Below, one piece after another: positions 24,836 to 60,248 of a stretch of 64,000 bases of DNA (position 1 is the first letter of the stretch; the number at the start of each line of letters is the position of its first letter). A program made the position numbers and the translations under genes. Source of the stretch: a virus. The stretch lies in IMG/VR virus record IMGVR_UViG_3300030061_002247, positions 1 through 64,000 of that record. One strand, 5' to 3'. Under the pieces are notes generated by a model. It was not told where the DNA came from, ran no database searches, and saw only the letters and a list, made by a program, of their open reading frames with translations.

Positions 24836-25942
24836 TCAATCATCCTCCGCTGTCCCATCATAGTATCTACATCTTCCAGTGCAGATACCGTCGTGTATTA
24901 ACGTGCGACAGGTGGCTGGAATATATCCGTTGTTACCTCCACTGCCTATCACTATACTCTTTACTTGATGTCTAGTGACTGATGGATTGAAGTCAACCCA
25001 TTCTTGAGCCTCTATGATATTAACAATCTGATTGATGTGAGTTTGCTTCTCCTCCAATGAGGGATACTCAGGTGGGAAGAACCATCTCAGTCTACCCGCT
25101 AGATATGATGCGAAGTGAACCCTAGCCTTGTGTGTGGGGTTACCACCACCCATCGCTGATTGTGCTAGGCATGGTAGGATAATCATATTGTCAATTGCTA
25201 GTTCCGGTAGGTCGATGTTCTTGTACTCCTTCCCCTTGAACTTCTTGCCTCTCTTTCTGATTTGCAGTTTGATAGTATCAGTGCCATGCTTGATGAAGCC
25301 AGAGCGTGACTCCTGTGACATCTCTATGAGGTCATCATGGTTGCAAGTCATCACCTCATGAGATGTGAGTGGTATTGTCCAGCAGCCTCTTCTACTGTTG
25401 TAGGAGTTAGGTATCCTAATCATACCAGCAGTATCGAAGGCGACAGTAGGGTCGTTGCAGTACAGGTCTAACTTCTTGTGCCAGTCAGAGAGGAGGACTC
25501 TCCCTGCTTCCTTGACCATGGCCACGTCGTACCCTGTGGAGGGTGTGTGGGTTTTGCTAAGTGGTATCCAGAAATGAAAACCACCACCACTAAACCAAAT
25601 ATAGTGGATTTTGTTGCTGCTTTTTAAATAAGTGTGGAGGTCACGCACTTGCTTTTGCATCTCATCAAACGGTACATCCTCTCCTTTCTTCCTGAAGTTC
25701 TTGCAATCAAAGTCACATACGAAGTGTCTGATGATTGGTGTGTTGTAATCAACTCTGTGGTTTCGAGGTGGGGTCAGGCTTCTGTATCCATACGCAGTGA
25801 AGTATACATTACCACTCCCGTTCTTTCCTCTCCAATAACTCTCAAGTTCATCGGAGTTCTTCACGAGTCTCCTGAAACCCTTGTTTCCATCAGAGTTCAA
25901 TTCAAGAACTTCTCTTGGGAAGTCCAGTGTGATGAAACTCAT
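24836..25942 (-). CDS. priS: Archaeo-eukaryotic primase, PriS catalytic domain fused to PriL-like Fe-S C-terminal domain
   Basis: CDFD (motif I), FSGGGFHFW (motif II), IRIPNS; C-terminal LPCL...THKAR...ATCRTL..GICTGRC cysteine cluster. Confidence 0.88.
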   Translation of the reverse strand: MSFITLDFPREVLELNSDGNKGFRRLVKNSDELESYWRGKNGSGNVYFTAYGYRSLTPPRNHRVDYNTPIIRHFVCDFDCKNFRKKGEDVPFDEMQKQVRDLHTYLKSSNKIHYIWFSGGGFHFWIPLSKTHTPSTGYDVAMVKEAGRVLLSDWHKKLDLYCNDPTVAFDTAGMIRIPNSYNSRRGCWTIPLTSHEVMTCNHDDLIEMSQESRSGFIKHGTDTIKLQIRKRGKKFKGKEYKNIDLPELAIDNMIILPCLAQSAMGGGNPTHKARVHFASYLAGRLRWFFPPEYPSLEEKQTHINQIVNIIEAQEWVDFNPSVTRHQVKSIVIGSGGNNGYIPATCRTLIHDGICTGRCRYYDGTAEDD

Positions 25943-34833: not shown

Positions 34834-35264
34834 ACACTATTCCTCTCTTGTTCCTTTATATGAGAAAGCCCCTCATCCGCTTTTTTGACCCATTCTACGA
34901 AGGCCTCGTAGTCTCTTGGTGGTGGGTTGTCAATCACCCACTTCAGAGATAGGTAGCCTTCCTTGTCCACCAGCCTATCCTCTAACTTGAAGTGACCTAT
35001 CATAGTCATCCACTTGTTCACCTCGTCTGCTCTGCTCATCTTCTCACGGTAGGGTAAATCGAATCTCTCCAATACCTCGTTCAGAAAAAGAAAACGATTT
35101 TCAGTTTCACTTTGTTGTTGCTTTATATGTGAACGAAATGAGATGGAACGTAGTACCCTGAATCCATTTGTGGATGAGGCACTCTTCTGGATGCTGAAGT
35201 TGAACTTCAAATCAGCACACAGAAAGCCTAAACCAAACCAGAAATTATCAGGATGTAATGTCAT
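34830..35264 (-). CDS. Degenerate LAGLIDADG-fold protein
   Basis: WFGLGFLCADLKFNFSIQK....GFRVLRSISF parallels the I-CreI-type YLAGFVDGDGS..AQI.....K.QL.L.F pattern. Start uncertain (35264-35309). Confidence 0.45.
   Translation of the reverse strand: MTLHPDNFWFGLGFLCADLKFNFSIQKSASSTNGFRVLRSISFRSHIKQQQSETENRFLFLNEVLERFDLPYREKMSRADEVNKWMTMIGHFKLEDRLVDKEGYLSLKWVIDNPPPRDYEAFVEWVKKADEGLSHIKEQERNSV
34850..34870 (-). promoter_or_regulatory. Conserved viral TATA promoter motif, copy 1 (GGCTTTCTCATATAAAGGAAC)
   Basis: Ends 16 nt upstream of the rfcS ATG; one of 7 near-identical copies. Confidence 0.8.
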
Positions 35265-48633: not shown

Positions 48634-49712
48634 TCACTCTCCTGTTTCTTGTCTTGTTCCTTTATATGAGGAAGGTCAACCTTACCCACACCTACGTCTG
48701 TTACATCTATCATGTTGGAACTCCCACATGTGATGCACGGTATCTCACCGTTGCTGTCTCTCTCTATATTCGACCCTACGACTTCCTGAGCATCGCAATT
48801 GAGACACTCGAATATCCTATCGTCCACGTCTGTTAGTTCACTATCATCTTTCCTTGACCACCCAGTCTCGGTATACTCCCAGTCATCGAACTCGTCGTCA
48901 TCCTCAAGGGAATCGTTCACCTGTTTGTATATGCTCTGCGTGTTGATACTCGCATAGTGGTTGCCCCACCCTCCTGAGTATCCACTCCACTTGTTGGATG
49001 ACACACGTGAGTCTCCAACAGGCAAGCCACACACATCAGCGATGTACTGTTGCTGACTCGATGCCTCGACCTCATGGACACACATGTGTTCCCTGACCCA
49101 ATCAATCAACTGACCTGCATCCTTCCATGTGTGTTGGGACTCAGGCAGTAGGTAGTGAGCAAGGATAGCCAACTGCACACCAGTCCTACCATGTCCACCC
49201 ATGCACTGGCAAGAGACAGTCTTGACACCCTTGGTGTAGATGTCCTCAACAAGTGCGAGCCAGAACTCACGACCCAATCCCGTAGGGATGGAGTAGTCCG
49301 GCCAGTCGATGCTGAACACAGCAGTCATGCTGTCAGACACCTGCGTGTTGGATGCCTTCCAACCCTCAGGGAAATCATGGTCACCACTCTTGAGATACCT
49401 GTGTCCCTTAGACACAATCTCACTTGGGCCAATTGCAACATCCGGTAGTGGGTTCATCAACCACCAACCACCTTGACGGCTTGAGCCACCACCGTAGACC
49501 TCGATACCCTCAGGTGTTGTGAACACAAGCACGTTGCCTGTATGACATCCGTTCTTGGATACATACGTGTGTCCCTTGGACTTGGGCTTGTGCTTGCCAC
49601 AGTAGTCACCGACCTTCGGTGCGTCATTCTGGCATGTCTCGTGTTTGCATATCTTTCTCTGTTTCATCTTCTCATCTCCGTTCTTACCTGTAAGGTACTT
49701 CTTCCATTTCAT
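48630..49712 (-). CDS. Dual-specificity (CDKN3/Cdc14-like) phosphatase with flanking Zn-binding domains
   Basis: IDWPDYSIP (WPD loop), CQCMGGHGRTG (CX5R), VEASSQQQYI (Q loop); C-terminal CLNC...CITC. Confidence 0.85.
   Translation of the reverse strand: MKWKKYLTGKNGDEKMKQRKICKHETCQNDAPKVGDYCGKHKPKSKGHTYVSKNGCHTGNVLVFTTPEGIEVYGGGSSRQGGWWLMNPLPDVAIGPSEIVSKGHRYLKSGDHDFPEGWKASNTQVSDSMTAVFSIDWPDYSIPTGLGREFWLALVEDIYTKGVKTVSCQCMGGHGRTGVQLAILAHYLLPESQHTWKDAGQLIDWVREHMCVHEVEASSQQQYIADVCGLPVGDSRVSSNKWSGYSGGWGNHYASINTQSIYKQVNDSLEDDDEFDDWEYTETGWSRKDDSELTDVDDRIFECLNCDAQEVVGSNIERDSNGEIPCITCGSSNMIDVTDVGVGKVDLPHIKEQDKKQESE
48656..48676 (-). promoter_or_regulatory. Conserved TATA promoter motif, copy 5
   Basis: GTTCCTTTATATGAGGAAGGT. 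Confidence 0.8.
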
Positions 49713-52066
49713 TGTTTCATCTCCTGTGCCAGTTTCAATGCGTTCATGTATGTCACGAACTCATTCGTTTCTAATTCGTACACGAGTTTGGCATACACGT
49801 GTTCGACTTCTTCCCATGTCCCTGCTTCTACGTGGTGACACATGTCAGCAATCAACACAGGTAGTTCCCAGTCAGTGTTAGCGACTGCCTCCTTAGCCTT
49901 CTTGACCACATCTGATTCGACCTTGACAACCTGTGTCTGTTGCTTCCCAAGTAGGAACACGTCGTATGTGTTGGAAGGCACAGACGTGTTGGTCTGCACA
50001 CTCAACTTCTTGATGTGGCTGGCATCGTAGTGGTCTGACCCATGTCCCGTAGGGATGTAAGACTCATGGCCAGTCTTGTTGTACTGGTGGTTCGAGTCAC
50101 CATGGAACATGTGTGTCAAGTCACCGTTCTCGTTCCACTTGTCAAGGACAACCTGAACATCCTCAGGTGCATCCGTGTGTTTGAACACGTGATTCTTCCT
50201 GAAGTACGAAGGACTCTTGCCGAAGAAGCCAAGCACATCCCCCCAGAGGATGTTGCATTCCTGTGCGTTTGTCTCAACACGGTCGTTCACTATGTCCATT
50301 GCAATCATGTATGAGTGAAGGGCATGTCTCATCTCACCCTCTTGGTAGCCGAGTGTTCCAGCAGTGAAGTGAATCATCGTGTCACTACCGAACTTGTTCA
50401 GCAACCCACCGTTGTTATGCTGTGCATTCTCCAAGGCATTGACTGCTTCGACCAGTTCCTTACCCACGTCTTCCAACTCGTCAGCGGATGCTTGCATGAG
50501 TTGGTGTATGAGTGTTGCAACACGAGCACCTTTCTCCGCTCCGTCGCCCCACTTCGGCCCACCGTAGGCTGATGACCAACCGGTCTTGTACTCGTCATGC
50601 ATGTATGTCAGAAGGTACGATGCCTGTTCCCAATCCACGATTACGTCTCTCATCCATCGGTGGTATGGCCTTCGACTGTTCGGCATCCCAACCCCATTGG
50701 GCATGTCCCAATCGGACATGGGTTCAACACCCATGAACGAGTTGACTGCCAGTGGTATGGTGACTCGGTAGTTCTTCTTCTGTGACCTAGCATGTCTCAT
50801 CTCTCCAACAGTCGCACCGATTGTTGCTTTGACAATCCATGCACAGAACACACCACCAAGGAACGCACTGAGTTCAGGGTCGTTGCAAGGCTGACCCATC
50901 CACTGATGGAAGAACGTAGACAGGGCTGACTGCTTCCTGTTCCAATGTGCATTGCCGTATGTTACCCCATCCCTGAACGCACTGACGTGTTGCCAAGGGT
51001 TGTATGGATTGGCAACGAAGTCACCGTCGTTGTTCTGAATGACCCATCCTGAGGCAACCTCAGTCCATGTGTCTCCAACACACACCTCGTCTGTTATGAC
51101 ATACGGGATACCATGTGTCCGACAGTGTGCGTTGATGTGACTCAGTAGTGAGCCGTTAGGCTCTACTACAACGAAGCCATCAGGACAAAGTTCCTTTGTG
51201 ATGTTCTCCTCAAGCCACTGGACTTGTTCAAGTCCAGTCATGACCACAGTCTCAGTCACCACTACATCCCCATCGGGGATAGAGCCGTTGATGCTGACTC
51301 CTTCCGGTGGTGTTCCAATCTGTATGTGTTCGTCACACCCACGTATCTGTGTGAGTATTGACTTGACCGAGTTGATGTACTCGTCATCCCACTGCCTGTT
51401 GTGATGCTCAACATCGTTGAACACCATCTCAATCTCATGCTTGTTGGTATCGTATATGTGTCCACTTCCAGTGCTCATCTTGACGAGTGCTTGTTCAAAC
51501 ACACGATGCTTCTCTGATAGCGGGAACATCAGAGATGTACCTGCGTCAGAGTAGTTAGTCCCGGCAGTCACTCCGTCGTGACCCTCACCGAATACAACAT
51601 ACATGTTCGGAGCAAGGACACACGAGGCAATCGCTGGTTGGTAAGGCTGAACAATCAAGCATCCCTCAGGGTCGTGTTCCAACATGACTGCCTGTAGGTG
51701 CTGAATCGTCTTGACGATAGCATTCTTGTGGTTGACACACCTAGTGCTTTCCAACACACCGTGTCTTGGATTGAGAGGACAAGTCCTCACGAAGATATCA
51801 GTGTCCACTGATATGCTAGACTCACACCACTTGACAACTTCCCAAGGGTCATCGTCAACCAACACGTAGAGCGTCTTGGGAACACGGTAGCCTGCGTAAG
51901 ACTTGCCGAAGTCCACGTAGTGGTCAAGGGCTATCGCTTTCTGCGATTTGACCAATGGCATCCTGTGTGTGTTCCATGTATCCATGTCCGTGTATGTCTT
52001 ATGTTCGTCGTTCATCTCAATCACCTGTGTGTTCTTTTCCATGTTCATCATCTTCTCAATACTCAT
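49709..52066 (-). CDS. PEP-utiliser-like phosphotransferase: ATP-grasp-like N-terminus, phospho-His swivel domain, unknown C-terminal domain
   Basis: GYRVPKT, IFVRTC, LIVQPY, GVTAG, EIEMV and LTQIR resemble the PPDK/PEP-synthase nucleotide-binding domain. VVVEPNGSLLSHINAHCRTHGIP matches GG.TSHAAI.AR..GIP. Confidence 0.7.
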   Translation of the reverse strand: MSIEKMMNMEKNTQVIEMNDEHKTYTDMDTWNTHRMPLVKSQKAIALDHYVDFGKSYAGYRVPKTLYVLVDDDPWEVVKWCESSISVDTDIFVRTCPLNPRHGVLESTRCVNHKNAIVKTIQHLQAVMLEHDPEGCLIVQPYQPAIASCVLAPNMYVVFGEGHDGVTAGTNYSDAGTSLMFPLSEKHRVFEQALVKMSTGSGHIYDTNKHEIEMVFNDVEHHNRQWDDEYINSVKSILTQIRGCDEHIQIGTPPEGVSINGSIPDGDVVVTETVVMTGLEQVQWLEENITKELCPDGFVVVEPNGSLLSHINAHCRTHGIPYVITDEVCVGDTWTEVASGWVIQNNDGDFVANPYNPWQHVSAFRDGVTYGNAHWNRKQSALSTFFHQWMGQPCNDPELSAFLGGVFCAWIVKATIGATVGEMRHARSQKKNYRVTIPLAVNSFMGVEPMSDWDMPNGVGMPNSRRPYHRWMRDVIVDWEQASYLLTYMHDEYKTGWSSAYGGPKWGDGAEKGARVATLIHQLMQASADELEDVGKELVEAVNALENAQHNNGGLLNKFGSDTMIHFTAGTLGYQEGEMRHALHSYMIAMDIVNDRVETNAQECNILWGDVLGFFGKSPSYFRKNHVFKHTDAPEDVQVVLDKWNENGDLTHMFHGDSNHQYNKTGHESYIPTGHGSDHYDASHIKKLSVQTNTSVPSNTYDVFLLGKQQTQVVKVESDVVKKAKEAVANTDWELPVLIADMCHHVEAGTWEEVEHVYAKLVYELETNEFVTYMNALKLAQEMKQ

Positions 52067-52950
52067 TCCTCTTCACTCTCCTGTGTTGGAACTGCGAGAC
52101 CGGCTATGCCAGCCAGTGCCCTTTCCTTGGCTGTCTCAATCGCAAGTATGTTGGTAAACACACTCGCTCCGAATTGCTTCACCTGTGTGTTGCCAACCTT
52201 GACCTTCTCAATCTGCTCATCGAAGGACATGCCCTGAGTGTCAATCAAGTAGTCACTCTTGAGTGTAGCAACGAAGTCATCGGCCTTAGCCAACGGGTGT
52301 GTGTCCCATTGCATGTAAAGCATCTCCTCGAAGTGGCTCTCAATGGTCTTCCTCAGCAACGCATGTATGTCAAGCCCTGCGAGTCTCTCAGTCAGTTTCG
52401 TGTTGTAACTCTCAAGGTCATGCTTGTTGTCGTTCATCTCAGCAACTTTGTTGTTGTCTTCCGCTGACAACTTGTCCATCTTTGCCTTAGGCAAAGCAGT
52501 CAACACGTGGTTGTACCAATCCGTGAGTGTTGCATTGTCCATGTTGACAGCACCACCACCGAACAAGTCCGAGTTCACATAGAACTGGTTGTCTTGGATT
52601 GTCGAAGCCAATCCCTTTGCGTAGTAGTTGTAACTCTTGTGTGTGAATTGCTTCTTCGACATTCTCCATCTCCTACCGAACGGATGCTTGTTCTGGTAGT
52701 AAAACGTGAAGCAGTGACCACTGTGGTCAACGAACCACTTCAAACATGCATCTATGTCAGACACAGACATGTTGTGCTCCGCCATCTTGTTGGCTAGCGA
52801 AGCAGGTCTGAAGTAAATCCCAACATGAGTAAGGAACTCACCTATGTGTGTTGGGACATCAATCCACTTCATCTTTTCCACTTCAGTGGAGAACTCCACT
52901 CCAACCCACGAGTGTTTGGATGAAGTCAACATGCGTTCGTTGTTACTCAT
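52063..52950 (-). CDS. Hypothetical protein
   Basis: 295 aa coupled ORF. Confidence 0.65.
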   Translation of the reverse strand: MSNNERMLTSSKHSWVGVEFSTEVEKMKWIDVPTHIGEFLTHVGIYFRPASLANKMAEHNMSVSDIDACLKWFVDHSGHCFTFYYQNKHPFGRRWRMSKKQFTHKSYNYYAKGLASTIQDNQFYVNSDLFGGGAVNMDNATLTDWYNHVLTALPKAKMDKLSAEDNNKVAEMNDNKHDLESYNTKLTERLAGLDIHALLRKTIESHFEEMLYMQWDTHPLAKADDFVATLKSDYLIDTQGMSFDEQIEKVKVGNTQVKQFGASVFTNILAIETAKERALAGIAGLAVPTQESEEE

Positions 52951-53243
52951 TGAACCACCTCTTCATCATCGACTACAACATAGTCGTGTTTGTCAAGTAG
53001 GAATCCCAAGGGATTCTCCGGGTTGTCTCCTTCGGCATCCAAGACAAACACGAGTCCTCTGGACTCCCAGTTCGGTTGATTGATTGCATCAATCGCCGTG
53101 TATGTTTTGGTCTCCGACAGAGACAATCGACTTCCCAACAGACGGAAGTCAGACCTCGGTCTAACAACAAACGTGTTGGGATATCTAGGGCTTTCGCTGG
53201 TTGGGCTTCTTTCGTTTTTGTTTACACTGATTACCATCGGCAT
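52947..53243 (-). CDS. Hypothetical protein
   Basis: 98 aa; starts 15 nt after promoter copy 6. Confidence 0.6.
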   Translation of the reverse strand: MPMVISVNKNERSPTSESPRYPNTFVVRPRSDFRLLGSRLSLSETKTYTAIDAINQPNWESRGLVFVLDAEGDNPENPLGFLLDKHDYVVVDDEEVVQ

Positions 53244-53258
53244 CGTGACTTCTATTAT

Positions 53259-53279
53259 GTTCCTTTATATGAGAAAGCC
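53259..53279 (-). promoter_or_regulatory. Conserved TATA promoter motif, copy 6
   Basis: GTTCCTTTATATGAGAAAGCC, identical to copy 1. Confidence 0.85.
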
Positions 53280-53806
53280 ACGAAGTTGATTCTATTGCAT
53301 GAGTGTTAAACGATTCCAATCATACGTGTTGGCAATTCCCTTCCTGCGTGCGAGTTGATGTGTCTCGTGTTCAACAGTCCGATGATTCATTCATACAATA
53401 TACATGTGTCTAAGAATACAACTTTCATTGTAGTCTCTACATATATGTATGTACAGTCTATTGTATAGACAATACAGTTAGACAGTTAGACAGTTATACC
53501 AAAGGTATCCAACACACAGGAAAGGCAACACGTATTCACGTATACGTATATGTACAGATGGATACCAACATGTGTTCAACACACGTATGTGTTAGGGAAG
53601 AAGCCTAAGCCGAAGGCTAGGCCTTGATAAGCCAAACAACTGGGAGGCTATGCCTCTCGGAAGTTTGACGTTTTTTTTGGGGGGTAACCTGTGTGTGTTC
53701 TGACACGTGGGAGCACAGGTTGGTTGACATGCTGAGGAGCGAGTCGTTAGACTCACTCCCCAACACTTACGTATGTTCCGAACACTTGCATGTTGGAATC
53801 TTTGAT

Positions 53807-54604
53807 TCAAGCGAAGATGGAGTCATGGACTCCAACGAGCACTGCAAGTTCTTTCTTGCTCCTACCTTTGGTAGGGATGTCTCTGGAATCAGCCTTGAAC
53901 TCCCATTGGGAGTGGTTGCTTCCTTCCCAGTCTGCTTTTAGCAGTGTGGCTTCTCTCTTCTTGCCGTTGATAACGGCAGTCAAGGTGACAGTACCTTTGG
54001 GTACTGCTTTCTTGACCTTGGAAGCCTTCGGCTCTGCTTTGGAAGCCTTTGGCTTAGGGTCAAGTTTGCCGTTCTCATCGAAGAGTTCCTCTTCCTTAGG
54101 TGTGAGTTTAGCCTTCGGCTTTGCTTTCTTGGAAGCCTTAGGCTTCCTAGCCTTCTTGGTTGTCTTCTTCTGAGGCTTTGCCTCAGGTTCAGCCTCAGCC
54201 TCAATAGCCTCTTCGAGGATATTGTCGTAAGCCATCTTCCTTAGGGAAGAGTAGTACTTACTAACCCCGTTAGGGTTAGTAGCAGAAAGCAACTCAGAGA
54301 GTTGGCTATCTTTCAGAGACTTGATGTTTACATCCTTCAGGATGTAGAGACCAGTGGTAGTACCACTGGTAACCTTGCCAGTCTTAGGACAAGTACTTGT
54401 CCAGTCTCTTGGCTTCTGTCGATACGTTAGTATCGCTTTAGCAAAAGCCCTAAGGCTTTTTCTGCTGTACTGAACACCTTTGGTGTTCCTTGACAGAGTA
54501 GACAATGAGTCTACTCTGAGAGTACAGACCGAAGGTCTGTCTGAGTTCCCTAGGAACTCGGCGGTCGTCTTTATGCATTTCAGGATGTCAGATTTCTTGG
54601 CCAT
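53807..54604 (-). CDS. Lysine-rich, histone H1-like basic protein; first gene of the - strand arm
   Basis: KPQKKTTKKARKPKASKKAKPKAK and repeated PKASK; starts about 16 nt after promoter copy 7. Confidence 0.65.
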   Translation of the reverse strand: MAKKSDILKCIKTTAEFLGNSDRPSVCTLRVDSLSTLSRNTKGVQYSRKSLRAFAKAILTYRQKPRDWTSTCPKTGKVTSGTTTGLYILKDVNIKSLKDSQLSELLSATNPNGVSKYYSSLRKMAYDNILEEAIEAEAEPEAKPQKKTTKKARKPKASKKAKPKAKLTPKEEELFDENGKLDPKPKASKAEPKASKVKKAVPKGTVTLTAVINGKKREATLLKADWEGSNHSQWEFKADSRDIPTKGRSKKELAVLVGVHDSIFA

Positions 54605-54620
54605 CGACTCTCATGTGTTG

Positions 54621-54641
54621 AGCCTTTATATGAGGAAGACC
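54621..54641 (-). promoter_or_regulatory. Conserved TATA promoter motif, copy 7 (variant)
   Basis: AGCCTTTATATGAGGAAGACC; the core CCTTTATATGAGGAAG is conserved. Confidence 0.75.
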
Positions 54642-54724
54642 AAGGCCAAACGTTCCGTTCCTTGGAACGGTACGTTCGTGTATGTACATACATGTGTTGG
54701 CTAACTTGTTAGCCCAGTGGCCTA

Positions 54725-54810
54725 GTTAATTGCACCCCGAAAACAGTTAATCGCAGGGTTAATCGCAGGGTTAATCGCCGGAGGCGATGTTAATCGCAAC
54801 GGTTAATCGC
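54725..54810 (+). repeat. GTTAATCGC direct repeats (5 perfect, 1 variant), iteron-like
   Basis: Copies at 54725 (GTTAATTGC), 54746, 54758, 54770, 54789 and 54802. Confidence 0.9.
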
Positions 54811-54839
54811 ATCTTTTAGTCCCACACAGCGCTGCACCA

Positions 54840-54873
54840 TTTTTTCGGTGGGAGGCCCTTTCCCGAAAAAAAA
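54840..54873. terminator. T-tract/A-tract flanked imperfect inverted repeat (terminator-like or unwinding element)
   Basis: TTTTTTCGG-(14 nt)-CCGAAAAAAAA followed by further A tracts. Confidence 0.4.
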
Positions 54874-55247
54874 TTACAGAAAAAAATCAATAATCCAGCC
54901 CCCCTCCCCTCTACCGTGTTGGCAGGAGGCGTTGTCCATAATAGCATGGCTGCACGCATTGGCAAGTCGTCTGTCAGCACGCCCCTCGACCAAGCGTGGA
55001 CTGTGTAGGAGGCGTACTCATGAAGATGCCCAAGATGCATTACAACCAAGGCGGTATGTACTGGCCAGAGAGTAAGAACATACAAGTAGAATGCGAGTAA
55101 TCCTTTATCGTGGCCGGTGTCATCTGTTTGTCATCTCTCTACCTGTTCCAAAATTGACAAAACTCTTTCATGTTTCATAAAGCAGGTGGCATTGGCCACA
55201 CCTAAAAGCCAGCAACGGTTTTATCCTGACCCCCCTTGCGCTTGGGC

Positions 55248-55802
55248 ATGGGTGCATTCGACTCCGCATGGTCACTTCTCAAAAACTTCGATGAGGAGAT
55301 GGACGAATATCGAAGGGTGATGGATGCTCCACCACCAAGGAGAACACCACAGATGGATGATGACCCATTCAGGATGAAACAGCCTGATATGAGTGCCCAG
55401 ATAGAACAGATTCTTGCCGAGATTCAGCGTAGAGAAGGTAGGAAAAACCCTGATTTTCATCACCAAGACTACGATTCGGTCTTTTATAGAAACAAATATG
55501 ACCGAGAAAATCCACAGGATAATCAACTCCTGAACACCACAAGACCTCAGATGAAAGACAGAATGGGGGCTCTACGAGCAGAAATGGAAAGAAGAGCCAG
55601 AAAAAGAGGGTCTCCTGTAGTAGGTGATTCTGCCCCACCAGAAGCAAAAGGTCCTCAACCAATGGGAGCACCGGAGTCTTTCAGTGCTCCAGAGGGCATG
55701 ACTAACGAGGAATATGGTATTATCGACCAGCCGGACAGTAAGTACACCAAAGAACTACAGGGGCAAGCGCTTCAAGACTACATTAAACAAAGGTTTGGTT
55801 GA
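55248..55802 (+). CDS. Leader-family protein (MGAFDSAWSLLK)
   Basis: Start reassigned to ATG 55248; a TTTTAT box lies about 28 nt upstream. Confidence 0.7.
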   Translation: MGAFDSAWSLLKNFDEEMDEYRRVMDAPPPRRTPQMDDDPFRMKQPDMSAQIEQILAEIQRREGRKNPDFHHQDYDSVFYRNKYDRENPQDNQLLNTTRPQMKDRMGALRAEMERRARKRGSPVVGDSAPPEAKGPQPMGAPESFSAPEGMTNEEYGIIDQPDSKYTKELQGQALQDYIKQRFG

Positions 55803-55804
55803 AT

Positions 55805-56134
55805 ATGAGTGTTTTTGACTCTGCATGGTCCTTACTCAAGATGGGTAGGCGTAGTGGAAACAACAGGAGAGGTCAACAAGTCTCCAATCAGAGGCGTTTC
55901 AGAAGACCAATGCAGTTACCACCAGAAGTCATGGAGGTACTAAGTCCTGAGACAAAGGCTAATCTTGAGAGCATGAAACAAAGTGACCCAGAGGCATATA
56001 ACAAGTATCTGATTGAATTGTCTATGGGCTTTAGAGCAAGCCCTCCTCGTAACAGCATGATGCCAGACCCCGGTCAGAGTCAGGTTCGCATACCATACGA
56101 CCCACAAAATGAATCAGGGGTTGAAGGGCAATGA
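55805..56134 (+). CDS. Leader-family protein (MSVFDSAWSLLK), Arg-rich
   Basis: Shared N-terminal motif. Confidence 0.7.
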   Translation: MSVFDSAWSLLKMGRRSGNNRRGQQVSNQRRFRRPMQLPPEVMEVLSPETKANLESMKQSDPEAYNKYLIELSMGFRASPPRNSMMPDPGQSQVRIPYDPQNESGVEGQ

Positions 56135-56628
56135 GTGCTTTCGACAAGGCTTGGTCCTCTCTTCTCATTAAGGGTACGGTTGATGCCATCATGGATGCTG
56201 CATCGTCTCCCGCTTTAGTAACACACGAAGACCACAAAAGAAGAAGTCAAGAAATACACCAGATTCTTGAGGATATAGCGAATCAGCACGGCATTACTAC
56301 GGCTGATATCCATAGACATATAGACCTGTCAGGTCATCCTGATGACCCTAGCGATGCAGTGTATGATGATGTGGCTAGACGAAGGGAAGAGTGGGAGCAG
56401 CAGAATGGAAAGACAAACTGGCCGGGGTACTACGTGACCCATGAGGGCATAGGACCAGACCCCGAACTCAGGCGTGCTGCTGATGAGTGGGAACAAAACT
56501 TCGACCATCCCGGTGGAGACGACCACTTGGAATCGCTTGGTATACGAGAACAGATAAGAAATGCGATGTATGAAATATCAGGACCTGAGTATGATGCTAA
56601 TTACCAACAGAGGATGGGTCAGCAATGA
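56131..56628 (+). CDS. Leader-family protein (MSAFDKAWSSLLIK), acidic/His-rich
   Basis: Shared motif; ATGA coupling. Confidence 0.7.
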   Translation: MSAFDKAWSSLLIKGTVDAIMDAASSPALVTHEDHKRRSQEIHQILEDIANQHGITTADIHRHIDLSGHPDDPSDAVYDDVARRREEWEQQNGKTNWPGYYVTHEGIGPDPELRRAADEWEQNFDHPGGDDHLESLGIREQIRNAMYEISGPEYDANYQQRMGQQ

Positions 56629-56903
56629 GCGCTTTCGACAAGTCTTGGTCGGTTCTGAAGAACCTAGCGCCCACTTCACCCTCTGACCCGATGGGCACAC
56701 GAGCGATAGACTCGATGTTCTGCCAGAGTTGCAAGCAGGGCCTCAATCCGGGCAGTCCACAGTGCGAAAACTGCGGTGCACCTACTGGAAACAGCATGAG
56801 AAACGTCATGGGAGACGGAAATATGCACTCACCGGGGCAGCAGTCCATGATTGAGAGAGCGAGACAGGCCATGGAAGCGCAGAAAAGGTCAGAGGGACAG
56901 TAA
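56625..56903 (+). CDS. Leader-family protein (MSAFDKSWSVLK) with Zn ribbon
   Basis: Shared motif; CQSC...CENC. Confidence 0.7.
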   Translation: MSAFDKSWSVLKNLAPTSPSDPMGTRAIDSMFCQSCKQGLNPGSPQCENCGAPTGNSMRNVMGDGNMHSPGQQSMIERARQAMEAQKRSEGQ

Positions 56904-57008
56904 CCAACTGATACCGAACAGCAAAACCATCGTTGCTAGCCCCATCTTGATTACCAAATCAATCACTACCATTCTAAAACTGTTAAAAATCGCTTCGCTA
57001 ATGCCCAT
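56889..57008 (-). CDS. Possible small membrane protein (39 aa, not in ORF track)
   Basis: MGISEAIFNSFRMVVIDLVIKMGLATMVLLFGISWLLSL; fills an otherwise empty gap. Confidence 0.4.
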   Translation of the reverse strand: MGISEAIFNSFRMVVIDLVIKMGLATMVLLFGISWLLSL

Positions 57009-57084
57009 AACTTACGATTCATCGAGCAAAAGACGGTCTTTTAACTAAACCCTTATTAAAGCAGCACCATACATAGTATTCCCG

Positions 57085-57276
57085 ATGACAGTATCCGAGA
57101 GCGCCTTCGCTGCGGCGTGGCTTCTACTCAAGCATCAGGAGAATGGTGTCGATTTTTCCTCGAAAGAGGACCAATTCATCACTGGGACTATCCTCAAGAT
57201 GATGAACTCCGACGATTTGAGGCTTCAAGAGGAAGCAGGCATGCTTTACGCACGCTATAAGGTCATGAAATCCTAA
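57085..57276 (+). CDS. Leader-family protein (SAFAAAWLLLK)
   Basis: Shared motif; a CTTATTAA box lies about 30 nt upstream. Confidence 0.65.
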   Translation: MTVSESAFAAAWLLLKHQENGVDFSSKEDQFITGTILKMMNSDDLRLQEEAGMLYARYKVMKS

Positions 57277-57623
57277 GAACGAGTGGTTGTGCTTCCAGTG
57301 GAAGCCCCTGACATCATTCTTTGACGTGCTTCTTGCTCCATTCTGGCTGTATCCTGCTGATTTCGGGCTGCGGCCTCTTGTAGGCTACCCATTGCCTGTC
57401 CCATCGGACTTTCCTTCGCCGCATCCAAAGTTTCCTTCATTTCCTTGCCTTTATCGGCTAAATTAGCCATATTTTGCCCAATTTTCGAGTTTTTGGCCGC
57501 TACACCGACTTTTTTAGCGGATTGTAGGCCTTTTGAGCCTAATTTCGCTGCTGCCGGGCCTACTCTGGCCAATCCAGCGACTAGAGCCGGGAGAAACTTC
57601 TCAATGTCGTAATCCGACTCCAT
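57273..57623 (-). CDS. Ala/Lys-rich amphipathic protein, inverted within the cluster
   Basis: MESDYDIEK-FLPALVAGLARVGPAAAKLG...; helical, low complexity. Confidence 0.6.
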   Translation of the reverse strand: MESDYDIEKFLPALVAGLARVGPAAAKLGSKGLQSAKKVGVAAKNSKIGQNMANLADKGKEMKETLDAAKESPMGQAMGSLQEAAARNQQDTARMEQEARQRMMSGASTGSTTTRS

Positions 57624-57676
57624 AACACGTCGGAGAAGCAGAAACTAATTATGGTGTCGCCTTATACGCCGCTAGC

Positions 57677-57916
57677 ATGGGGTTTGAGTTCGATTTGGCG
57701 TTCGAGTCACTCAAGAAGGGTCAATTCGGGATGAAAGGCTCTCAATATATCTCAAATCGACCAAAAGCGAAGGCGAAAGCCAAGGTTCAGCGTCTAGCGA
57801 GAAAGACGAAGAACCGAAAGACGAAGGCTCGCTACAAACGCAACCTAGATAGGGGTAACACACGTCCGAGGATGCGTAGGCAGACAGGCCTAGTCAGAAT
57901 ATCCAGAAGGAGATAG
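57677..57916 (+). CDS. Highly basic leader-family protein (FEFDLAFESLKK)
   Basis: K/R-rich body with a variant leader. Confidence 0.65.
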   Translation: MGFEFDLAFESLKKGQFGMKGSQYISNRPKAKAKAKVQRLARKTKNRKTKARYKRNLDRGNTRPRMRRQTGLVRISRRR

Positions 57917-57921
57917 ATAAA

Positions 57922-58467
57922 ATGAATGCATTCGACACAGCATGGACACTACTCAAAGCAGACAAAGAGAAGTGCCCTTCATGCAATATGTCGAAATCAG
58001 AGTGCATGACTCATAAAATGGGCTGCGGCGGTGAGATGAAGAAGGCATATGTGATGAGAAAAGCCGCTTTCAGACTAAAATACGACTACAACACACTCAG
58101 GAAATCGTACAGAGATGAGTACGAGGACTACTCGGATGGCCCTCCAATGGGTGAGTTCGATATGGCTCAGGCCGTATCCGACCACAATGACGGGATGATT
58201 TTCGATGACCACATGCCTAGGAACGAGAAAGAGAAACAGATACTACACCACTACATGAACAAACTGAATGTTATTCCGGGTTTGACAGCAGAGGAGCAGG
58301 GATTGGATGATGATGACCACCAAATGGCCAGCGATGTGGCTCAAGAGTACTTCGTAGAGCACATGAGGGAAATGGAAGCCATGAACTCAGGCGTTACCGG
58401 TAGAGACAGCGCACCGTCGAAAGTAGGAGTCTCCTCCCCTCAGATACCAGAGCAGCGTAATCAGTGA
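57922..58467 (+). CDS. Leader-family protein (MNAFDTAWTLLK)
   Basis: Shared motif; CPSC...C...C. Confidence 0.7.
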   Translation: MNAFDTAWTLLKADKEKCPSCNMSKSECMTHKMGCGGEMKKAYVMRKAAFRLKYDYNTLRKSYRDEYEDYSDGPPMGEFDMAQAVSDHNDGMIFDDHMPRNEKEKQILHHYMNKLNVIPGLTAEEQGLDDDDHQMASDVAQEYFVEHMREMEAMNSGVTGRDSAPSKVGVSSPQIPEQRNQ

Positions 58468-59111
58468 TGTGTATGAAGGACAAGGGCAAGAAAGCAGGGA
58501 TGACACTGGTTATCGCTGTCGGCCCTAAGATGCCCAAGAAACCCACTGAGACCTCGAAACCAGACGAGAAGGCCATGAAGAAGGCTTTTGATGTTGCTTG
58601 GGGTGTAGTTAAGGCTATTCCAGAGGCAAATAGTAGGTTTTCTCAACAAAATTTGGGAGAACTACCTCATACAATGGGTACATCTTCGGCAGAACCTCTT
58701 CAATCATTCAATGTGGATGATAAATTGGACTTAGAAAACGATTTGAATGAAGGAAGGGCACAATATATGGATGAAGATATGGGTGACCGGAATTTTAGAG
58801 GAAACATTGCCGCAGATTACAGACCTCAAGGTGCAAATGAAGGTAACGAAGAGTATTACAGAGGACTTTTAGAGGAAATGCTACGAGGAAAAATCTCAGG
58901 AAGAAAGGATATGGCCCATGACCCTGAGATGTTACGAGATTACGACCAAAGACAGGGTGAGTTAATGGATAACGAAAGAACATCAGTACTTGCAGAGGGT
59001 ATGGAACCACCAATGCCTCAATCTCAACCTCAATCTGGTGAAATAGGTATAATGTCACCAAGAAATGTTAGAAGATTTAACCGAGGTATGGGTCCTTCAA
59101 CCCCGTTTTAG
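58464..59111 (+). CDS. Protein with an internal leader motif (AFDVAWGVVK)
   Basis: Motif at 58584-58613. Confidence 0.65.
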   Translation: MMCMKDKGKKAGMTLVIAVGPKMPKKPTETSKPDEKAMKKAFDVAWGVVKAIPEANSRFSQQNLGELPHTMGTSSAEPLQSFNVDDKLDLENDLNEGRAQYMDEDMGDRNFRGNIAADYRPQGANEGNEEYYRGLLEEMLRGKISGRKDMAHDPEMLRDYDQRQGELMDNERTSVLAEGMEPPMPQSQPQSGEIGIMSPRNVRRFNRGMGPSTPF

Positions 59112-59119
59112 GGGATTTT

Positions 59120-59896
59120 ATGACTAGACAGACCGAATTAGGTGAATATCACCCTGATTTTCCCAGTAGCCTCGGTCCAGTCAATGAGTATCACGGCACA
59201 ATCGACATGCAGGGCGTTCTCGACCAAGGTATCAGGGGTGGAAACCCGAAAACACGCTCGAAACACTACGTTCCACCCAGCCTAAGGAATGAGGATAGGG
59301 TGTCCTACACCACTGACAATCCAGACCTCGCACGCCAGTTCGCATTGGAAAGGGCCAAAAAGTTCGGCCTGCCTGAGAGCAGCGTGGGTGTAGTAGGCGT
59401 GAGGGGCGGAGGACTGGCTAACCCAGTCCTACAACCAGAGCCTAGCGGTGGTATTTTCAGTGGTACTGAAAGTAATGTCAGGAGTGGAGGCATTCCTAGG
59501 GCCAATCTAGCCCCTATGACGATGAAATCAGACGCTTACGTGCAAGTCACAGCGACTTGTGACTGCTGTTCACCCTCCACACAGGCGTTCGGCACTCTAG
59601 TTGAGGACTATTTCGAGAAGGCCAAGAAGAAATCCAAGCCTTTCCACGGCTACAATCCCAATAGACACCACAAGAAGGGAGGTCTGAATGCGAAAGGTCG
59701 AGCCAAAGCGAAGAGAGAAACAGGTGCAAACCTCAAACCTCCTGTCACTACCAAGCCATCCAAACTCAAACCCGGAAGCAAGAAGGCGAAAAGAAGGAAA
59801 TCCTTCTGCGCTCGCATGGGTGGCAGTAAAGGACCTACGAGCAAGGATGGTAAACTAACCCCGAAAGGTGCAGCATTGAAGAGGTGGAATTGTTGA
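59120..59896 (+). CDS. ART-fold-like domain fused to a DUF6321-like basic domain
   Basis: EYHGT....VLDQGI...VSYTTDNPDLARQFA (ART-like); KGGLNAKGRA...LKPPV...RRKSFCARMGG...ALKRWNC (DUF6321-like, from recall). Confidence 0.6.
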   Translation: MTRQTELGEYHPDFPSSLGPVNEYHGTIDMQGVLDQGIRGGNPKTRSKHYVPPSLRNEDRVSYTTDNPDLARQFALERAKKFGLPESSVGVVGVRGGGLANPVLQPEPSGGIFSGTESNVRSGGIPRANLAPMTMKSDAYVQVTATCDCCSPSTQAFGTLVEDYFEKAKKKSKPFHGYNPNRHHKKGGLNAKGRAKAKRETGANLKPPVTTKPSKLKPGSKKAKRRKSFCARMGGSKGPTSKDGKLTPKGAALKRWNC

Positions 59897-60060
59897 AAAA
59901 GGACAAATGTTGTTGTGGTGCTACTAAGAATAATCCATGTAAATGCATGGAGTTAGGCAAACAATGCTCCATGACTCCACCTCGCTGCCCATGTTACAAA
60001 TTGCTGTATGCACAGAAAAAAGCCGCTGACAAACTAACCAAAATGGTGGGTGTCATATGA
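59893..60060 (+). CDS. Cys-rich microprotein (55 aa, TTG start, not in ORF track)
   Basis: KKDKCCCGATKNNPCKCMELGKQCSMTPPRCPCYK; overlaps both neighbours by 4 nt. Confidence 0.55.
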   Translation: MKKDKCCCGATKNNPCKCMELGKQCSMTPPRCPCYKLLYAQKKAADKLTKMVGVI

Positions 60061-60248
60061 TAGATTCTTGTGGTTGTGGTCACTGCGTCGGCATGGATGG
60101 TGCATGGGACACACTCGAAAAGAAACTCTGTCCAGCAGGTAAAGCCGCTGCAAAGAGGAAGTTCAAGGTCTATCCGTCTGCCTATGCTAATGGATGGGCT
60201 GTACAGTATTGCCGGGGAAAGTTTCGAGGGAAAGGTAAGAAGAAATGA
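60057..60248 (+). CDS. Small basic phage protein (YPSAYA motif, DUF5872-like)
   Basis: AKRKFKVYPSAYANGWAVQ, preceded by MDGAWDTLEK. Confidence 0.6.
   Translation: MIDSCGCGHCVGMDGAWDTLEKKLCPAGKAAAKRKFKVYPSAYANGWAVQYCRGKFRGKGKKK

Follow-up and report, generated by a model that had tools for sequence, protein, structure and literature searches.

A dense array of short, co-varying inverted repeats through a gene and its flanks, next to an origin-like element in a magrovirus-like genome

The stretch of DNA considered here, called the window, comprises positions 1-64,000 of the virus record IMGVR_UViG_3300030061_002247, a linear record of 82,877 bp estimated to be 77% complete. Structural genes lie on the plus strand, from 1 to 18.4 kb and from 55.2 kb onward, and the replication genes form a minus-strand block from 18.7 to 54.6 kb. 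At the head of this block stands a gene for a protein of 265 amino acids (aa), here called the hairpin gene; some 25-30 short inverted repeats run through it and its flanks (~20-30 as counted for the 0.8-kb gene and its flanks). To its right lie a TATA-like motif, three non-coding palindromes, six iterons and an element of A and T tracts, the last of which sits between the iterons and the first plus-strand gene. To its left come a non-coding spacer and three further genes of the same block (Table 1).

The record encodes tail and structural proteins matching PHROGs, together with a family B DNA polymerase (DNA_pol_B), a Cpn60_TCP1 group II chaperonin (8e-131), an SNF2 helicase and a PD-(D/E)XK nuclease. 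In the phage collection, the best matches of the polymerase are haloarchaeal tailed viruses at ~24% identity, with HVTV-1 tied for best. Group A magroviruses have been described as tailed viruses of ~100 kb, assigned to marine group II archaea, with a family B polymerase nearest to those of haloviruses, a thermosome and SNF2 (Philosof et al. 2017, PMC5434244). The polymerase, thermosome, SNF2, tail proteins and size (82.9 kb at 77% completeness) all match the profile given in that paper. Judged by its gene content, the virus looks magrovirus-like, and an archaeal host is likely. Metagenome runs that contain the locus are labelled marine or seawater. A 368-aa product encoded at 24836-25942 on the minus strand weakly matches PriL, the regulatory subunit of archaeal primase (E 3e-4, far short of the family cut-off), which would fit the archaeo-eukaryotic primase reported for magroviruses.

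The open reading frame (ORF) at 53807-54604 is a real protein gene, because 77 homologues of its product, at 97-39% identity, are present in public metagenome collections and its N-terminal domain is confidently folded. Many residues are invariant in the protein alignments, and insertions and deletions are of whole codons. AlphaFold2 predicts an N-terminal domain of residues 1-138 (pLDDT 90, pTM 0.82), a disordered Lys/Pro/Ala/Glu linker of residues 140-202, and a small C-terminal domain made of a beta-hairpin followed by a helix-extended-helix motif. The product belongs to no family in Pfam, PHROG or NCBIfam, no usable match was obtained in the ESM Atlas, and Foldseek searches at E values up to 0.001 (full model against PDB, N-terminal model against BFVD) returned no match. 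A wide VIA-align search with the N-terminal domain gave a best Z score of 3.4, that is, no fold match. The last 45 residues resemble the helix-extended-helix of SAP, LEM and Rho-N (best Z 5.4, root-mean-square deviation 1.8), with several SAP rows at Z 3.0-4.3; scores under 8 are weak by the guidance of the tool. This modelled resemblance hints at a nucleic-acid-binding-like motif at the C terminus. Neither blastn of 52000-56500 nor tblastn of the protein found a homologue in the phage collection.

The inverted repeats were counted as perfect stems of at least 5 bp with loops of up to 6 nucleotides (nt). The interval 53438-54714 holds 52, 31 and 18 stems of at least 5, 6 and 7 bp, compared with means of 7.5, 1.95 and 0.53 and maxima of 15, 6 and 4 in 300 dinucleotide shuffles. 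For the ORF (counts in Table 1), means over 1000 synonymous-codon shuffles are 8.65, 2.68 and 0.92 in the same three classes, with maxima of 19, 9 and 5, and shuffles of codon order give means of 4.4, 1.1 and 0.3. Synonymous shuffling, proposed as a check in an earlier note on this DNA, therefore removes the hairpins: 15 stems of at least 7 bp fall to 0.92. In the 120-nt non-coding stretch upstream of the ATG, 3 stems of at least 7 bp occur where 0.03 are expected. The hairpins are far beyond chance, since the observed counts exceed those of all synonymous-codon and dinucleotide shuffles. Bases inside perfect-stem hairpins make up 54% of the coding sequence, hairpin starts show no preference for codon phase (8, 7 and 6), and density is higher in the conserved, folded N-terminal domain (31 per kb) than elsewhere (~21 per kb).

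The density is also unusual on the scale of the genome, as the earlier note had remarked. The 1-kb bins 53 and 54 contain 6 and 14 stems of at least 7 bp, compared with ~1 per kb over the 82.9-kb record. When every gene of the record was compared with its own synonymous shuffles, the hairpin gene carried 21 stems of at least 6 bp against 2.8 expected (7-fold), its three downstream neighbours were 2- to 7-fold in excess, and most other genes had a 0- to 3-fold load, a few small ones more; genome-wide there is a mild excess of short-loop inverted repeats. Of the 28 hairpin starts listed in that note, 26 correspond to perfect stems of at least 5 bp, the start at 54649 being the stem at 54655 plus an imperfect outer extension, but those at 54023 and 54110 have stems of only 4 bp. 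The scattered hairpins at 52481, 52716 and 53002 are present as well. Stems reach 13 bp only when a mismatch is tolerated; perfect ones extend to at most 10 bp here and 11 bp in relatives.

The stems share no sequence family, as judged by a direct-repeat search of the region. Direct repeats there are confined to the iterons, the promoter-like motif and, within the Lys/Pro/Ala linker, three GGAAGCCTTNGGCT units, and a single 31-nt stretch at 87% identity is the sole other match of the region in its own genome. A scan of 52000-56000 against Rfam 15, on both strands and at E up to 1, gave no match. The KPKA codon repeats do not explain the hairpins, and it is symmetry rather than a motif that is conserved, stems differing within the array and co-varying between relatives; on both points the earlier note was right. 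We regard it as practically certain that the array is real and maintained.

Table 1. Features of the hairpin locus and its surroundings (positions in the window; a dot marks features given no strand)
Feature	Position	Strand	Remarks
Hairpin gene, 265 aa	53807..54604	-	31, 21 and 15 perfect hairpins of at least 5, 6 and 7 bp
Three perfect 7-bp hairpins (starts 54655, 54679, 54699)	54655..54714	.	Between iterons and TATA-like motif
TATA-like motif TCATATAAAGG	54623..54633	-	Ends 18 nt before ATG of hairpin gene
TATA-like motif, next copy	53262..53272	-	Ends 18 nt before ATG of 98-aa ORF 52947-53243
Six iterons GTTAATCGC	54725..54810	+	One with a mismatch; three at 12-bp spacing
A/T-tract element	54840..54886	.	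T6CGG ... CCGA8 inverted repeat, then A7 run
Non-coding spacer, 563 bp	53244..53806	.	Downstream of hairpin gene; many CAACAC-type words; highly conserved in relatives
Three downstream genes	49709..53243	-	Hairpin load lower than in hairpin gene, yet raised

Thirty related loci were assembled, 2 from a scan of viral contigs and 28 from a metagenome scan. Duplicates were dropped: L009 (its contig is that of L003), L010 (its coding sequence, CDS, is identical to that of L003), and L020 and L021 (identical to L019). L017, cut by a contig end, was used in the stem counts, the position comparison and the comparison of individual hairpins and left out of alignment A3, and a distant clade, L027-L032, was kept apart from the covariation counts of the main clade. 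All 23 of the 23 orthologue CDS of the main clade (L003-L026), down to ~40% protein identity, carry 13-20 stems of at least 7 bp, compared with ~1 in their own synonymous shuffles, and 18-25 stems of at least 6 bp. In the codon alignment, the hairpins of the orthologues occupy the same columns. A single hairpin can exist as up to 8 (6-8) different perfect stems, its loop varying freely and the encoded amino acids shifting too. Individual hairpins do turn over, some being replaced by shifted ones, although positions in the main clade are mostly fixed. A lineage-specific, in-frame insert of 17 codons, shared by the window and some relatives, consists largely of two perfect palindromes, and other relatives have further palindromic inserts upstream of the promoter motif.

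Covariation was measured in a MAFFT alignment of 20 sequences over 157 pairs taken from the reference hairpins, with partners slid or shuffled as controls. Cells are paired in 87.8% of cases, against 32-43% with slid and 81.4% with shuffled partners; the pairing structure comes from a single member of the alignment, a choice that raises this percentage and gives no advantage to two-sided changes. Compensatory changes in orthologous loci, which the earlier note had named as something to look for, are abundant. Two-sided change is seen in 56 pairs, against 14-23 (slid) and 27.9 (shuffled; 0 of 500 reach 56), and in 156 cells, against 19-41 and 48.4. As far as these alignments go, structure rather than sequence is conserved, and the hairpins outlast the amino acids, the protein changing while the stems remain perfect.

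Pairing in the array follows a strict rule. Out of 2891 cells, 2469 hold Watson-Crick pairs, and on the sense strand 69 hold G:T and 112 A:C, a ratio equal to that expected from base composition; helix ends show the same lack of wobble preference (G:T 26 and A:C 34 of 169). Selected RNA helices normally tolerate G:U, and because it is not favoured here, the rule is strict Watson-Crick complementarity, equal on both strands. In 114 of 160 distinct hairpins the closing pair is 5'-C...G-3', compared with 30% of all stem pairs, and the effective loop is of 3 nt in 101 and of 4 nt in 47. Closure by C...G and loops of 3-4 nt are the most stable choices, so these preferences point to real folding. 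Both strands fold far better than shuffles, with z scores for fold energy of -13.4 as DNA and -10.6 as RNA.

These rules bear on whether the hairpins are instead structures of the mRNA, in the first transcript of the leftward operon, where they would resist ribonucleases or RNA-guided defence, or slow the ribosome, for example to let a nascent DNA-binding protein act in cis on the iterons. The dense zone does match one transcription unit and tails off downstream, and the coincidence of the dense part with one gene counts against a reading at the DNA level alone. So does the A-richness of the loops on the sense strand (52% compared with a background of 33%), as in structured RNAs, and a transcript starting further upstream, at or near the iterons, might place all the hairpins in RNA. 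The sense RNA folds well, with the z score given above, and strandless contigs of four RNA libraries cover parts of the gene, spacer and iterons, possibly through DNA carry-over. Against this, G:U is tolerated no more than A:C, unlike in real RNA helices, no Rfam family is matched, and nothing singles out the sense strand, the symmetry being equal on the antisense strand by construction. Moreover, the three hairpins that precede the gene, with both arms changing among relatives at 54655 and 54699, lie upstream of the TATA-like motif, itself 18 nt before the ATG. An mRNA-level structure is accordingly judged unlikely. The nuclease-resistant first mRNA put forward in the earlier note is disfavoured, since tolerance of G:U is absent and some hairpins precede the TATA-like motif, whereas its proposal of a structural DNA element gains from strict pairing on both strands and from the extension of the array beyond the promoter-like motif. 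Altogether, a DNA-level rather than an mRNA-level element seems the better supported, with reasonable though incomplete confidence.

The motif TCATATAAAGG occurs in 7 exact copies, at 34853, 38312, 41553, 45054, 48659, 53262 and 54623, all on the minus strand; 1.45 are expected, and 0 of 100 shuffles reach 7. From its number and placement it may act as a promoter. If the motif is an archaeal TATA box, the spacing to the ATG at the 53262 and 54623 copies would leave very short leaders or none. In the distant relative L030, GGAGG stands ~8 nt upstream of the ATG and the leader is longer.

The iterons form the sharp right-hand edge of the hairpin zone. The plus-strand genes beyond them have no hairpin enrichment, and on the other side the array tails off downstream in every long locus. 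The A/T-tract element is conserved in L004, L024 and L030, and the whole layout recurs in L004, L024 and the distant L030, with tagged plus-strand genes, A/T-tract inverted repeat, six iterons, palindromes, TATA-like motif, gene and spacer in that order; the iteron word is the same or diverged in these three, being of GTTTAAC type in L030. Taken together, the iterons and A/T tracts look like a replication origin or a packaging site. The earlier note had placed the array at a probable genome end or origin, and what stands of this is that the array directly adjoins an element of iterons and A/T tracts such as origins have.

If the iterons were instead a packaging site, the zone could be a genome end or the DNA that enters first, folding on resection or entry to guard the end in the manner of a telomere or to pause injection. 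An array that ends sharply on one side and grades off on the other would fit a one-way process from a fixed cut, and iterons also occur at terminase-binding sites. In phage T5, too, inverted and direct repeats are clustered at a particular place in the genome, the injection-stop region; this one is non-coding, within the terminal repeat at a mapped end, whereas the element here is a conserved coding gene. Magroviruses have been reported as terminally redundant linear genomes (PMC5434244), but terminal redundancy deduced from overlapping contig ends suggests permuted rather than fixed ends. In addition, three virus records are linear fragments without end repeats, and in a relative whose contig breaks off 214 bp beyond the gene, the missing sequence is not found at the opposite contig end. 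A genome-end role is considered very unlikely.

The explanation we tentatively prefer, at a confidence somewhat short of even, is a DNA-level hairpin array kept perfect by arm-to-arm copying and tied to the adjacent origin-like element. The zone would often be single-stranded, the likeliest occasion being the onset of replication at the iterons, with DNA opened or displaced in the direction of the gene. Each repeat could then snap into a mini-hairpin on either strand, and copying or repair across the hairpin would template one arm from the other, by template switching or by mismatch correction within the hairpin. Such templating would keep the stems perfect and yield 'compensatory' changes in one step. 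The hairpins would probably be useful at the single-stranded stage, for example to keep the DNA near the origin open, to provide sites for priming or loading, or to shield the strand, and the protein would evolve within the limits that they set. Templated arm copying is suggested by stems that are perfect or absent, by multi-base changes in both arms and by palindromic insertions, and a frequent single-stranded state by the need of arm templating for folded DNA. Template switching has been described as creating and keeping perfect stems (Monttinen and Loytynoja 2022, PMC8794818; also PMC8604942, PMC5941160). The perfect stems are probably kept by templated arm-to-arm correction, and the array is probably tied to the adjacent origin-like element; that it is linked to an origin as such is quite possible, if slightly less likely than not.

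Several observations weigh against this explanation. The case for an origin consists of the iterons, the A/T tracts, the strand switch and a GC-skew minimum at ~52-55 kb, all read from sequence, and the last coincides with the switch in gene orientation and is hence confounded. A bidirectional origin should expose both sides, yet the hairpins lie on the gene side only. Cruciforms do not extrude easily from stems as short as 6-11 bp, so the explanation has to take the single-stranded state for granted. Template switching would be marked by inverted loops; of 77 core pairs, 4 are reverse complements, 1 is reversed without being complemented and 1 complemented without being reversed. Two of the 4 reverse complements differ by one base and are hence trivial, which leaves this signature too weak to use. 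The distant clade L027-L032 has only 2-5 stems of at least 7 bp, compared with 0.1-0.4 in its own shuffles. The earlier note had asked whether orthologues keep the protein but lose the symmetry: L003-L026 keep the hairpins, but the distant clade keeps the protein with these few long stems, so the dense array is non-essential to protein or locus. Homologues in this clade are shorter (192-229 aa), without most of the Lys-rich linker. Finally, the first 100 kb of the 102.3-kb record of the cultured halovirus HVTV-1 contain no hairpin-dense zone (at most 3 stems of at least 7 bp per kb); archaeal tailed viruses whose polymerase is related therefore do not share the array as a general feature, and none of the cultured viruses covered here offers a model.

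The same templating could also act without any function. Coding palindromes would then arise by fold-back or template switching, and arm conversion would erase every mismatch, so that a repeat could neither decay nor, within a gene, be deleted; the array would be the mutational burden of a locally single-stranded or error-prone zone. The closest case in print is that of the mitochondrial genomes of Nematomorpha, described in 2019 as having perfect inverted repeats inside functional coding sequence, with both arms coding and the repeats perfect or absent (PMC6649704). Its authors consider arm conversion or template switching as the means of maintenance, show no function in that account, and in their Discussion argue exactly for such self-perpetuation of coding palindromes (PMC6649704). 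The arms reported there reach 284 bp, are scattered over many genes and are gained or lost between species, whereas the stems here are of 5-11 bp, concentrated in one viral gene and its flanks, mostly fixed in position in the main clade, and begin at iterons. Template-switch, or quasipalindrome, mutation as described in PMC8794818 likewise explains one-step multi-base changes, perfect stems and palindromic insertions, but it is a general mechanism and explains neither the confinement to a single gene nor the stable positions and number.

Functionless self-perpetuation accords with several features of the array: stems are perfect or absent, with no excess of wobble pairs or near-perfect intermediates, palindromic insertions are lineage-specific, hairpins turn over with shifted replacements, and, as a ratchet would give, the distant clade has a low load and the main clade a high one. 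The mild genome-wide excess of short-loop repeats fits as well. It accounts less well for the great stability of positions and numbers across the 23 main-clade CDS, for a density that is highest in the most constrained protein domain, for the strong bias towards the closing pair and loop size of greatest stability, for the 7-fold excess of one gene where most others have 0-3-fold, and for the sharp boundary at the iterons. This reading is regarded as fairly unlikely. Whether the array is adaptive rather than a by-product is evenly balanced in our view. Stable number and positions, a peak in the most constrained domain and optimal closing pairs and loop sizes speak for selection; the low load of the distant clade, the turnover and the genome-wide excess speak for a by-product. 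The density peak in the conserved N-terminal domain is unexpected for a tolerated by-product. A stronger form of the preferred explanation, in which ~25 position-fixed mini-hairpins of single-stranded DNA are the working unwinding, loading or priming zone of the replication start in this virus family, a 'structure code' written through a gene, is possible and rather doubtful.

In the iteron replicons P1, F and pSC101, the rep gene stands beside the iterons. These replicons share with the present locus tandem iterons of 9-12 bp, an A/T-rich tract, a strand-switch point and a neighbouring gene, here for a putative DNA-binding protein with a weak SAP/Rho-N-like C-terminal match (Z 5.4) and no family match. 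Mini-hairpins at conserved positions over a kilobase, whether replacing the unwinding element or accompanying it, are not known from any iteron origin. Another reading takes the array as a landing pad, its hairpins or small cruciforms being bound by a junction- or hairpin-binding protein, possibly the product of the gene itself, to form a nucleoprotein complex or a decoy for host nucleases. The gene adjoins the iterons as rep genes do, and its product combines a Lys-rich disordered linker with the SAP/LEM/Rho-N-like motif; but that fold match is weak (Z under 8), the N-terminal domain is without a match (best Z 3.4), and stems this short make poor cruciforms. Little probability is attached to such a landing pad.

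Hairpins that act only in single-stranded or strongly supercoiled DNA are known from the virion-RNA-polymerase promoters of N4, the complementary-strand origins of M13 and G4, plasmid sso and Frpo. The N4 promoter hairpins resemble those described here in their stems of 5-7 bp and loops of 3 nt. All these signals consist of one to three non-coding hairpins of conserved sequence, whereas here there are dozens, in a gene and with no conserved sequence, and it is on this last point that the likeness to N4 promoters drawn in the earlier note fails. A virion RNA polymerase was not identified in the first 64 kb, where the PHROG matches of the largest ORF (2487 aa) are all to tail or structural families.

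Some lineage-specific inserts are palindromic and in frame, as would be expected of a mobile palindromic repeat family such as REP/BIME, MITE or the Rickettsia-type in-frame palindromic elements. The stems, however, share no sequence, and one 31-nt match (87%) is all that occurs elsewhere in the genome, so that this origin merits negligible credence; a repeat-family or mobile-element source was rejected, direct repeats being limited to the iterons, the linker codon repeats and the promoter motif. Three further candidates were set aside. Palindromic operators of a dimeric regulator were rejected because a single protein cannot have ~30 unrelated sequences as its sites. Symmetry as a means of positioning archaeal histones was rejected because the spacing looks irregular by eye and perfect base-by-base symmetry is not needed for it. 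Stabilization of R-loops was rejected because the hairpins would be present in the RNA too and those upstream are outside the transcript.

Perfect inverted repeats are rare in genes, as structure and protein sequence compete for the same bases. The locus is thus a natural test bed both for whether compensatory changes come from one templated event or from two selected point mutations and for DNA secondary structure as a selected genomic signal in a double-stranded DNA virus. Literature searches returned no description of such an array in viruses, and the main text of two magrovirus papers contains none of the terms hairpin, palindrom- and inverted repeat. If the array is part of a magrovirus replication start, it would be the first cis-acting replication element for these abundant uncultured viruses of ocean archaea, and a working replication-start zone would represent a new origin architecture and an extreme of dual coding. 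If it is a self-maintaining by-product, the oddity of Nematomorpha would have a viral counterpart with a likely local cause.

Downstream of the hairpin gene, the spacer contains 17 stems of at least 5 bp (3.5 expected), 7 of at least 6 bp (1.1 expected) and 0 of at least 7 bp, and the hairpin at 53796-53808 spans the gene's stop codon. On the plus strand, 53560-53684 holds two hairpins followed by a T8 run (53671-53678) and a G6 run (53679-53684); this stretch is nearly identical in L004 and L024 and has no match in Rfam. Archaeal transcription usually terminates at an oligo-T run, and the stretch could encode a small RNA, read from the plus strand and antisense to the operon. The three downstream genes have 4, 4 and 12 stems against synonymous-shuffle means of 0.5, 1.7 and 4.1, and hairpins there are kept or co-vary in relatives, for example at 53078, 52480, 51266 and 51217. 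The 12 stems, of at least 6 bp, lie in the gene at 49709-52066 (minus strand), whose 785-aa product has no match in Pfam, PHROG or NCBIfam; its 10-bp stem at 51217 is identical in 5 of the 6 relatives compared.

Beyond the iterons, the plus-strand interval 55248-60122 encodes a run of otherwise unrelated small proteins with a common N-terminal tag resembling AFDxAWxLLK. The same arrangement of tagged genes is found on the divergent strand of L030, with the starts AFDNAW, AFSEAW and VFNEAW. A 20-codon ORF at 54946-55008 (plus strand) starts like the first plus-strand gene of the relatives, reaches the tag start ...LDQAWTV and then stops, whereas the same start in L004, translated by eye, continues through ...FDQAWSLL; the first tagged gene therefore looks truncated in this genome. 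At the other end of the window, the first kilobase is AT-rich (GC 0.42) and holds 15 stems of at least 5 bp, including two adjacent palindromes of AATATAT type. Palindromes and an overlapping pair of iteron-like words, each with one mismatch, are found at 185-215 and 404-419, and this may be a second regulatory or iteron-like site.

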